This document shows, one piece after another, positions 9,643-9,658 of a stretch of DNA of 43,002 bases (the stretch's first letter is position 1; each line of letters begins with the position of its first letter). Source of the stretch: a virus (Duplodnaviria; Heunggongvirae; Uroviricota; Caudoviricetes). The notes under the pieces were generated by a model, which was not told the origin of the DNA, did no database searches, and was given only the letters and a program-made list of their open reading frames with translations. The stretch spans positions 1 to 43,002 of IMG/VR virus record IMGVR_UViG_2740892012_000013, one strand, 5' to 3'. The position numbers and the translations under genes are program-made.

Positions 9643-9658
9643 GGCCGCGAAAGCGGCC
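9643..9658. terminator. Second copy of hairpin GGCCGCGAAAGCGGCC between convergent genes
   Basis: Identical to 6287-6302 including flanking AAGG; sits between the stop at 9636 and the stop at 9710. Confidence 0.45.

Follow-up and report, generated by a model that had tools for sequence, protein, structure and literature searches.

Two Copies of a Minus-Strand Terminator Hairpin as Probable Exchange Junctions in the Accessory Region of a Uetakevirus Phage

Two identical hairpins in an epsilon15/phiV10-like (Uetakevirus) temperate phage of E. coli are probably Rho-independent terminators of minus-strand transcription units, duplicated when accessory DNA recombined into a single ancestral terminator, with the hairpin serving as a repeated junction of exchange. 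The window is the whole stretch of phage DNA analyzed here, 43,002 nucleotides long. Two intrinsic terminators are an ordinary finding, and a homolog of one of them had been annotated in reference phage records before. Their distribution among relatives provides a clean sequence-level case of accessory-region rebuilding in a temperate phage, in which cassette insertion appears to have split an ancestral terminator and left two copies of it; at the hairpin edges, homology is lost in hundreds of E. coli prophages. The case is relevant to a long-standing debate, namely whether mosaic phage genomes arise via short conserved linkers or via random joints filtered by selection.

Sequence and Fold of the Hairpins

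The 16-mer GGCCGCGAAAGCGGCC occurs exactly at 6287-6302 and 9643-9658, and no third site is present in the 43-kb window with up to two mismatches allowed. Two or more matches were obtained in 0 of 100 dinucleotide shuffles, and a search of the window for the pattern GGCCGC-N4-GCGGCC gave only the two hairpins. A preliminary description of this DNA had reported an identical 16-bp hairpin with a GAAA loop and a common AAGG lead-in, each copy being placed between the stops of convergent genes. The exact match confirms the first point. The lead-in is real as well, AAGGCCGCGAAAGCGGCC being common to both sites, and can be extended to a looser repeat of TAA stop, A-run and hairpin that agrees at 27 of 32 positions (84%). 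The convergent pairs are 5900..6280(+)/6304..6873(-) and 9403..9636(+)/9710..10648(-), as described. Direct identity between the two sites comprises 16–18 bp only, and outside the hairpin they have nothing but A-richness in common.

RNA folds of either strand are dominated at both sites by the 6–7 bp GC stem. The stem is all-GC with a 4-nt loop, and the centroid structure is the hairpin alone, at about -13 kcal/mol (-12.8 kcal/mol for hairpin 1). Rfam, searched over the whole window at gathering thresholds, has no match at either hairpin; its matches elsewhere are isrK, C4, sar, and a tRNA. A full-text literature search for the hairpin string returned a paper on synthetic terminators only.

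Genes Around the Hairpins

The features that delimit the two sites are listed in Table 1. The YafO-like gene before hairpin 1 is annotated in RefSeq as "type II toxin-antitoxin system YafO family toxin" in a 100%-identical prophage, with the RefSeq/PGAP start equivalent to 6810, and Pfam has no family for this ORF. A promoter-like site of the cassette, TTGCCA-18-TAGAAT at 7386-7357(-), is a 10/12 consensus match only (promoter scan). The gp19-like gene probably starts at 6023, RefSeq/PGAP calling 258 nt, and its 3′ end aligns with the phiV10 p24 and epsilon15 gp19 context. The 77-aa gene is the last of the plus-strand Bro-N/YafO-2 unit. The ant homolog of TL-2011b is annotated as "anti-repressor Ant," and an Arc-domain gene lies near ant in divergent orientation.

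Table 1. Coordinates of the hairpins, their associated signals and the flanking genes in the window.
Feature	Position	Strand	Basis
Hairpin 1, GGCCGC-UUUC-GCGGCC in minus-strand RNA	6287..6302	-	Exact match; terminator scan (6 GC pairs, loop 4); fold
Hairpin 2, A-GGCCGC-UUUC-GCGGCC-U, 7 pairs	9642..9659	-	Exact match; terminator scan; fold; phiV10/epsilon15 annotation
U-tract of terminator 1, UUUUCUUUAU (minus strand), overlapping the TAA stop of the convergent plus-strand gene	6277..6286	-	Terminator scan
U-tract of terminator 2, UGUUUUUAAC (minus strand), overlapping the TAA stop of the 77-aa plus-strand gene	9632..9641	-	Terminator scan
Perfect 12-bp palindrome GTGACATGTCAC, abutting hairpin 2, directly upstream in the minus-strand direction	9660..9671	.	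Sequence search
YafO-family toxin-like gene, last of the minus-strand cassette ended by hairpin 1	6304..6873	-	phrog_1651
Upstream partner gene in the YafO-like cassette	6800..7339	-	phrog_9503
ant, P22-type antirepressor; transcript runs through the palindrome into hairpin 2	9710..10648	-	Pfam P22_AR_N, E=2.5e-45
Homolog of epsilon15 gp19/phiV10 p24, left flank A; stop 6 nt before hairpin 1	5900..6280	+	phrog_450
77-aa membrane-associated protein gene, left flank B; stop 6 nt before hairpin 2	9403..9636	+	phrog_3117/phrog_14503
Accessory segment between the hairpins, ~3.3 kb	6303..9642	.	Absent from single-hairpin relatives

The accessory segment between the hairpins contains the YafO-like cassette on the minus strand and, on the plus strand, isrK and C4 RNAs, a Bro-N antirepressor gene, a second, diverged YafO-like pair and the 77-aa gene. 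Searches of Pfam, NCBIfam and PDB sequences gave no family for the cassette proteins beyond their PHROG numbers.

Terminator Anatomy and Strand

Intrinsic terminators were recognized by a GC-rich stem of about 5–10 bp, a loop of 3–8 nt, a U-rich tract and a position downstream of a co-oriented stop. On the minus strand, both hairpins combine all of these features. The RNA 3′ of hairpin 1 reads UUUUCUUU (longer stretch TTTTCTTTAT), with U in seven of the first eight positions, and that of hairpin 2 reads UUGUUUUU (longer stretch TGTTTTTAAC), with six U in eight (UGUUUUUA). The co-oriented stop precedes hairpin 1 by 1 nt (6304..6873(-)) and hairpin 2 by 51 nt (9710..10648(-)). In a terminator scan of window positions 1–20000, the two hairpins head the list of terminator-like sites, both on the minus strand.

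The hairpins had been described as lacking a U-tract. This holds for the plus strand only, since the A-rich, AAGG-containing lead-in is the complement of the minus-strand U-tract. Judged by sequence, both hairpins are canonical Rho-independent terminators for minus-strand units, and we infer termination in the phage in vivo from sequence, fold, U-tracts and homology to annotated terminators. The earlier suggestion of a terminator or insulator therefore survives as a conventional, one-directional intrinsic terminator of the minus strand and falls as an oddity devoid of a U-tract. For annotators, the lesson is to inspect hairpins on both strands before a U-tract is called absent.

In the proposed mechanism, the RNA hairpin GGCCGC-UUUC-GCGGCC and its U-rich tail would release RNA polymerase at the ends of two minus-strand units, a promoter-gene-terminator cassette of the "moron" type carrying the YafO-like gene, and the arc-ant antirepressor unit. 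Termination would keep minus-strand transcripts from running antisense into the convergent plus-strand genes and then into the tail-fiber and lysis genes. The predicted insulation from the cassette and ant promoters would cover the convergent genes and, downstream, the repressor-controlled tail-fiber and lysis genes.

Convergent genes often share one terminator, and the hairpins might also end or stabilize the convergent plus-strand transcripts, that is, those of the gp19-like gene and of the Bro-N/YafO-2/77-aa unit. Each hairpin begins 6 nt after a plus-strand stop, and in plus-strand RNA its loop is a GAAA (GNRA) tetraloop on a hairpin predicted to be as stable as that of the minus strand (-14.9 kcal/mol; z = -3.3, site 1). 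However, a bidirectional terminator has an A-tract upstream and a U-tract downstream, and the plus strand has no U-run after either hairpin: the following eight positions contain two U at site 1 (AUUAACAG) and three at site 2 (UGUGACAU), and the scan of 1–20000 reported neither site on that strand. A bidirectional terminator or insulator is accordingly rather unlikely, and its effect would amount at most to weak termination or to protection from 3′ exonucleases. An effect on the plus strand that works without a U-tract, such as 3′-end protection by the GAAA-loop hairpin, is possible.

Counterparts in Reference Phages and in Designed Terminators

The single late-operon terminator of Uetakevirus phages is among the closest known counterparts of the one-directional terminators described here. 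In the phiV10 record, the feature "terminator" at 19505-19522, a predicted annotation at the end of the structural operon, is the site-2 sequence cattcgttaaaaacaaGGCCGCGAAAGCGGCCtgtgacatgtcacg, and the two phages are 100% identical there over about 46 bp. In epsilon15, stem_loop 19531-19556, GTGACATGTCACaaGGCCGCaataGCGGCCttttcttttt, follows gp18 and was annotated by sequence prediction as a "rho-independent terminator"; in its context GTGACATGTCACaaGGCCGCaataGCGGCCttttctttttca, the convergent gp19 comes immediately after the terminator. Its tail, TTTTCTTTTTCA, is the same as that of window terminator 1. The stem is also the same, whereas the loop is AATA in epsilon15 and UUUC in the window.

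The window agrees with this late-operon terminator in the stem GGCCGC/GCGGCC, in the palindrome GTGACATGTCAC upstream of it and in the location between late-strand genes and a convergent gp19-like gene. It differs in having the element twice. The palindrome-bearing copy ends ant and not the structural operon, because an immI-type module is inserted upstream, and the copy with the ancestral U-tract ends the YafO-like cassette.

The same hairpin has been designed de novo. The synthetic terminator D03, AAAAAAAGGCCGCTTTCGCGGCCTTTTTT, gave 89.8% termination in a GFP/RFP dual-reporter assay in Halomonas (PMC9271916). Its hairpin, GGCCGCTTTCGCGGCC, matches the minus-strand reading of the 16-mer at every position and leads into a T-run. 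Unlike D03, which has perfect A7/T6 tracts, the natural tails UUUUCUUU and UUGUUUUU have no matching tract on the other side of the hairpin.

Phage "morons" are promoter-gene-terminator units in the concept of Juhala and Hendrix (PMC3594210). The minus-strand YafO-like cassette resembles them in having a promoter-like site and its own terminator and in being variably present among similar phages; a terminator and a presence/absence polymorphism are seen, and its promoter is a consensus match only. In contrast to morons, the cassette has no terminator peculiar to itself: the one it carries duplicates the resident late terminator, a sign that the cassette entered by recombination at that site.

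Flank and Loop Combinations Among Relatives

IMG/VR was scanned for the exact 16-mer, which was found in at least 120 contigs, and the Uetakevirus-type contigs were sorted by their flanks into combinatorial classes. Three left flanks were distinguished among the matches listed: A, the 3′ end of the gp19-like gene as at window site 1; B, the 3′ end of the 77-aa gene as at window site 2; and C. The right flanks among the same matches are the palindrome GTGACATGTCAC followed by about seven unrelated families, the YafO-like cassette (Y), another minus-strand cassette as in TL-2011b (W), and others.

In four relatives (L004, L006, L010, L044) and in epsilon15, a single hairpin joins flank A to the palindrome flank. 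These are the outer flanks of the two window copies, so that window 6303-9642 is, relative to them, an insertion flanked by a duplicated terminator. The epsilon15 U-tract corresponds to the tail of window site 1 and the epsilon15 palindrome to the flank of site 2, which indicates that the ancestral terminator was split within the hairpin.

At site 1, the left alleles CCACATAAAGAAAA and CCGGTAAATTTAAA are found with the right cassettes ATTAACAGTCGT and TATCGTTTCGCT (Y and W) in all four combinations. Both left alleles are also found with either loop, GAAA or AAGA, again in every pairing; a TAGA loop occurs too, and the stem is constant. By the four-gamete argument, these combinations speak for crossing over within or at the 16-bp hairpin. 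At site 2, the 30-bp block of hairpin plus palindrome (9643-9672) is constant between three left and about seven right flank families among the matches listed. Across relatives, the stem is invariant and the loop variable (GAAA, AAGA, TAGA, AATA, TTCG, TTTT), and no compensatory stem changes, the covariation that would mark selection on structure, were seen. Most relatives with two hairpins have different loops at the two sites, AAGA at site 1 and GAAA at site 2; that both copies match exactly is a trait of the window's lineage, not of the element.

The two hairpins could instead be generic "ideal" terminators that arose independently, with no shared ancestry and no role in recombination. The at least 120 contigs carrying the 16-mer give this reading some weight, since 69 distinct flank contexts among the matches listed are unrelated to the Uetakevirus group and 26 of the 69 have a T-tract on one or both sides, which marks those 26 as independent terminators. 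Many of the other unrelated contexts are probably coding sequence in GC-rich phages. Recurrence in dozens of unrelated phage contigs, together with the independently designed D03, makes the 16-mer a generic "good" terminator hairpin whose identity alone is no sign of mobility, and outside it the window sites are alike in A-richness only. Pure convergence is nevertheless improbable: relatives have the same stem at both junctions regardless of the loop, an allele with a single hairpin connects precisely the two flanks that lie outside the window copies, the undivided ancestral arrangement is seen in epsilon15, and this stem serves no other terminator in the window. As the 16-mer does arise independently elsewhere, some of the identity between the copies could be convergent.

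Breakpoints in E. coli Prophages

Among complete E. coli genomes, 528 of 5,426 match window 6180-7400. Over 5400-9672, the window and the prophages of E. coli B19695 and Nord58 agree at 100% identity; beyond, they are unrelated, the break falling 1 nt after the palindrome. Breakpoints were tallied in an evenly spaced sample of 40 records from the 528 matching genomes. Homology ends at 6302, the right edge of hairpin 1, in 13 of the 40, and one further record breaks off within the hairpin, at window 6292 (query position 113). In 21 of 40 homology ends at 6280, the stop of the gp19-like gene; these records carry alleles of the phiV10 type, in which another, long hairpin occupies this place. The Y cassette is carried by 5 of the 40 sampled records. 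A search of the host and of related phages for further copies had been suggested; relatives have the same stem at both junctions, and E. coli homology breaks at its edges.

The phiV10-type allele of site 1 was seen in phiV10 itself (L001) at 6795-6865, where a long inverted repeat, GGAGTGCTTATATTTACC...GGTAAAT.T.A..GCACTCC, follows the stop of the gp19-like gene and no GGCCGC hairpin is present. The center of this repeat resembles the repressor operator TTACC-N5-GGTAA. Equivalent alleles are found at site 1 in L011, L018, L060, and L065.

Probable Recombination at the Hairpin

The single-hairpin alleles, the four-way flank combinations and the breakpoints at 6302 and 9672 all support the earlier suggestion of a recombination scar at module boundaries; the recombination mechanism itself is inferred. 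The probable course of events starts from one ancestral terminator closing the Uetakevirus late operon, arranged as palindrome, hairpin, U-tract and convergent gp19, as in epsilon15. Accessory DNA would have recombined in at the hairpin, splitting the terminator and duplicating the hairpin, such that hairpin 1 retained the ancestral U-tract and gp19 flank and hairpin 2 the ancestral palindrome flank. Since then, crossovers would repeatedly have fallen in the invariant stem-loop of 16 bp or in the 30-bp block of hairpin and palindrome, or this would have been the only junction that selection tolerates.

Another explanation of the same direct repeats is a mobile cassette, with the hairpin as an attC-like site or a target-site duplication and the 3.3-kb segment inserted by a site-specific enzyme that recognizes hairpins. 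The segment is indeed flanked by direct repeats of 16–18 bp, "empty" sites with a single copy exist, and a protein might recognize the palindrome next to the hairpin, which is strongly conserved. No integrase, transposase, nuclease or recombinase is annotated or detected among the intervening genes, however, and the segment is itself a patchwork whose parts separate in relatives. The Y cassette occurs in one left context only, no other left flank being found among the listed records of the 528 matching E. coli genomes; the reciprocal junction of B with Y was not found among the IMG/VR matches listed, and the loop differs between copies in most relatives. These observations make a mobile cassette very improbable. 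The proposal of a "mobile terminator" is likewise not supported: the copies have only 16–18 bp in common, neither a recombinase nor a transposase is annotated or detected between them, the left context is single among the E. coli records listed, and the 16-mer recurs independently.

Two known kinds of repeated palindrome were considered and rejected. The attC sites of integrons are imperfect palindromes of 57–141 bp, served by a dedicated recombinase and associated with cassettes in multiple contexts. The present hairpin is far shorter, a perfect 16 bp, with no recombinase annotated or detected among the intervening genes and one left context in the E. coli records listed. REP/BIME elements are imperfect palindromes of about 35 bp in many genome copies, as opposed to two perfect 16-bp copies in 43 kb.

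Exchange at the ancestral terminator may have followed either of two routes, short-homology recombination or random joints filtered by selection for intact terminators, and the present data cannot decide between them. Phage mosaic breakpoints generally lie at gene boundaries, which makes a hairpin-specific mechanism inseparable from random recombination plus selection. The debate is summarized in PMC3945230 and PMC3029335. About 30 bp is the quoted minimum for Red-beta-type recombination (PMC3945230). The 16–18 bp common to the window copies are below this value, and hairpin plus palindrome comprise exactly 30 bp. As regards short-homology recombination, the phiV10 annotation includes a RecT-like annealing protein.

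Conserved boundary or terminator motifs have been conceived of as recombination hotspots before (PMC3029335; PMC10408124; PMC3945230). Short conserved boundary or linker sequences at mosaic junctions of temperate phages go back to Susskind and Botstein and to Clark et al. (2001), as cited in PMC3029335, and in lytic coliphages a conserved terminator motif downstream of tailspike genes was proposed as a hotspot (PMC10408124). The window element resembles both in being a short conserved stretch between non-homologous modules, with recombinant flanks in all combinations, that doubles as a terminator. It differs from boundary sequences in measuring 16–30 bp only and in lying in the accessory region of Uetakevirus prophages, and is known here from sequence comparison. 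The "boundary sequence" features of CUS-3 were compared and rejected as the same element; they flank a homologous ant gene that has a different terminator.

The 12-bp Palindrome

The palindrome GTGACATGTCAC next to hairpin 2 occurs exactly three times in the window, at 9660-9671, 27818-27829 and 30305-30316, and in 0 of 100 shuffles. The 30-bp block that it forms with hairpin 2 remains constant while both flanks vary among relatives. In epsilon15 it is found at the same three syntenic places. Of these places, the terL and late-end sites have it in the phiV10 record, whose ends are spanned by a copy with one mismatch, GTGACATGTTAC.

The 9660 copy precedes the late terminator. The 27818 copy adjoins a terminator between terL and the convergent gp66-like gene; the stretch 27818-27853, GTGACATGTCAC-aaac-AGCCAGC-cgatga-GCTGGCT-TTGTTTT, has the same architecture as site 2 has on the minus strand. 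These two copies thus lie 1–4 nt upstream of a terminator hairpin with a U-tract, at the ant/late and the terL/gp66-like operon ends. The 30305 copy overlaps the stop codon of a gp49-like regulator gene (phrog_536) upstream of terS; a terminator comes next in epsilon15 and phiV10, and none is visible in the window.

A census was made in 80 close relatives chosen by the regulator protein. The exact palindrome is present at the regulator stop in 75 of them, a second copy lies about 2.2–2.4 kb downstream in 52, and only one further copy was met with in 1.4 Mb. Even where regulator homologs are 46–56% identical, their genes end in the palindrome. For the gp49-like regulator, no family beyond its PHROG number came out of sequence searches against Pfam, NCBIfam and PDB, and a full-text literature search gave no paper with the GTGACATGTCAC string.

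These positions raise the tentative and rather doubtful suggestion that the conserved unit is a composite signal of palindrome plus terminator and not the hairpin alone. One possibility is that the gp49-like regulator targets the palindrome, as DNA or as RNA, and so modulates whether transcripts terminate or read through where operons end; another is that the palindrome acts as a dedicated linker in recombination. On both views, hairpin 2 would make up one half of a new element, serving regulation or as a junction. An epsilon15 repressor operator was considered for GTGACATGTCAC and rejected, the annotated operator being ATTACC-N5-GGTAAT. To our knowledge, CRP, FNR and LexA sites do not fit GTGACATGTCAC either, their spacing or half-sites being wrong.

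In the window, a tRNA gene, 27164-27237(+), and a gene of the N4 gp49/Sf6 gp66 family, 27439-27846(+), form a plus-strand insert between terL and the portal gene. This insert is ended by its own palindrome, hairpin and T-run (27818-27860). In unrelated IMG/VR contigs (L224, 10815-10900; L145, L162, L171, L189), the palindrome lies inside arrays of GTGACA/TGTCACG half-sites; the L224 array is next to a G-rich repeat and within an ORF. Such arrays look like iteron-type origins, where the half-site may serve a different DNA-binding protein.

Other Features of the Accessory Region

Three copies of ATTACC-N5-GGTAA, the annotated repressor-binding motif of epsilon15 (ATTACCTGTAAGGTAAT), are present at 5929-5946, 7462-7479 and 8508-8525. 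The first lies upstream of the divergent tail-fiber/gp19-like region, the second at the isrK-C4-BroN promoter and the third ahead of the second YafO-like pair; the prophage repressor probably controls these accessory promoters.

Upstream of the Bro-N gene are isrK, 7516-7591(+), and a C4 antisense RNA, 7616-7701(+), both above the Rfam gathering score, as in antirepressor control of the P1/Gifsy type. A sar RNA of the P22 immI type, 10650-10717(+), likewise above the gathering score, is antisense to the 5′ end of ant. In this arrangement of isrK/C4-Bro-N and sar-ant, two different antirepressor control systems converge on hairpin 2.

Two YafO-like toxin genes, each with an upstream partner, are found within 3 kb in opposite orientations, at 6304-7339(-) and 8568-9393(+), with about 73% DNA identity. 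The second has a Pfam YafO match below the gathering threshold, and the first a PHROG number only. An inverted repeat of about 290 bp, 8176-8467 versus 9686-9978, pairs the 3′ end of the Bro-N gene with that of ant at 91–95% complementarity. Its arms include about 22 nt past each stop. The block between the arms holds the second YafO-like pair, the 77-aa gene and hairpin 2 with the palindrome; it would be inverted, and the terminator flipped, if the arms recombined.
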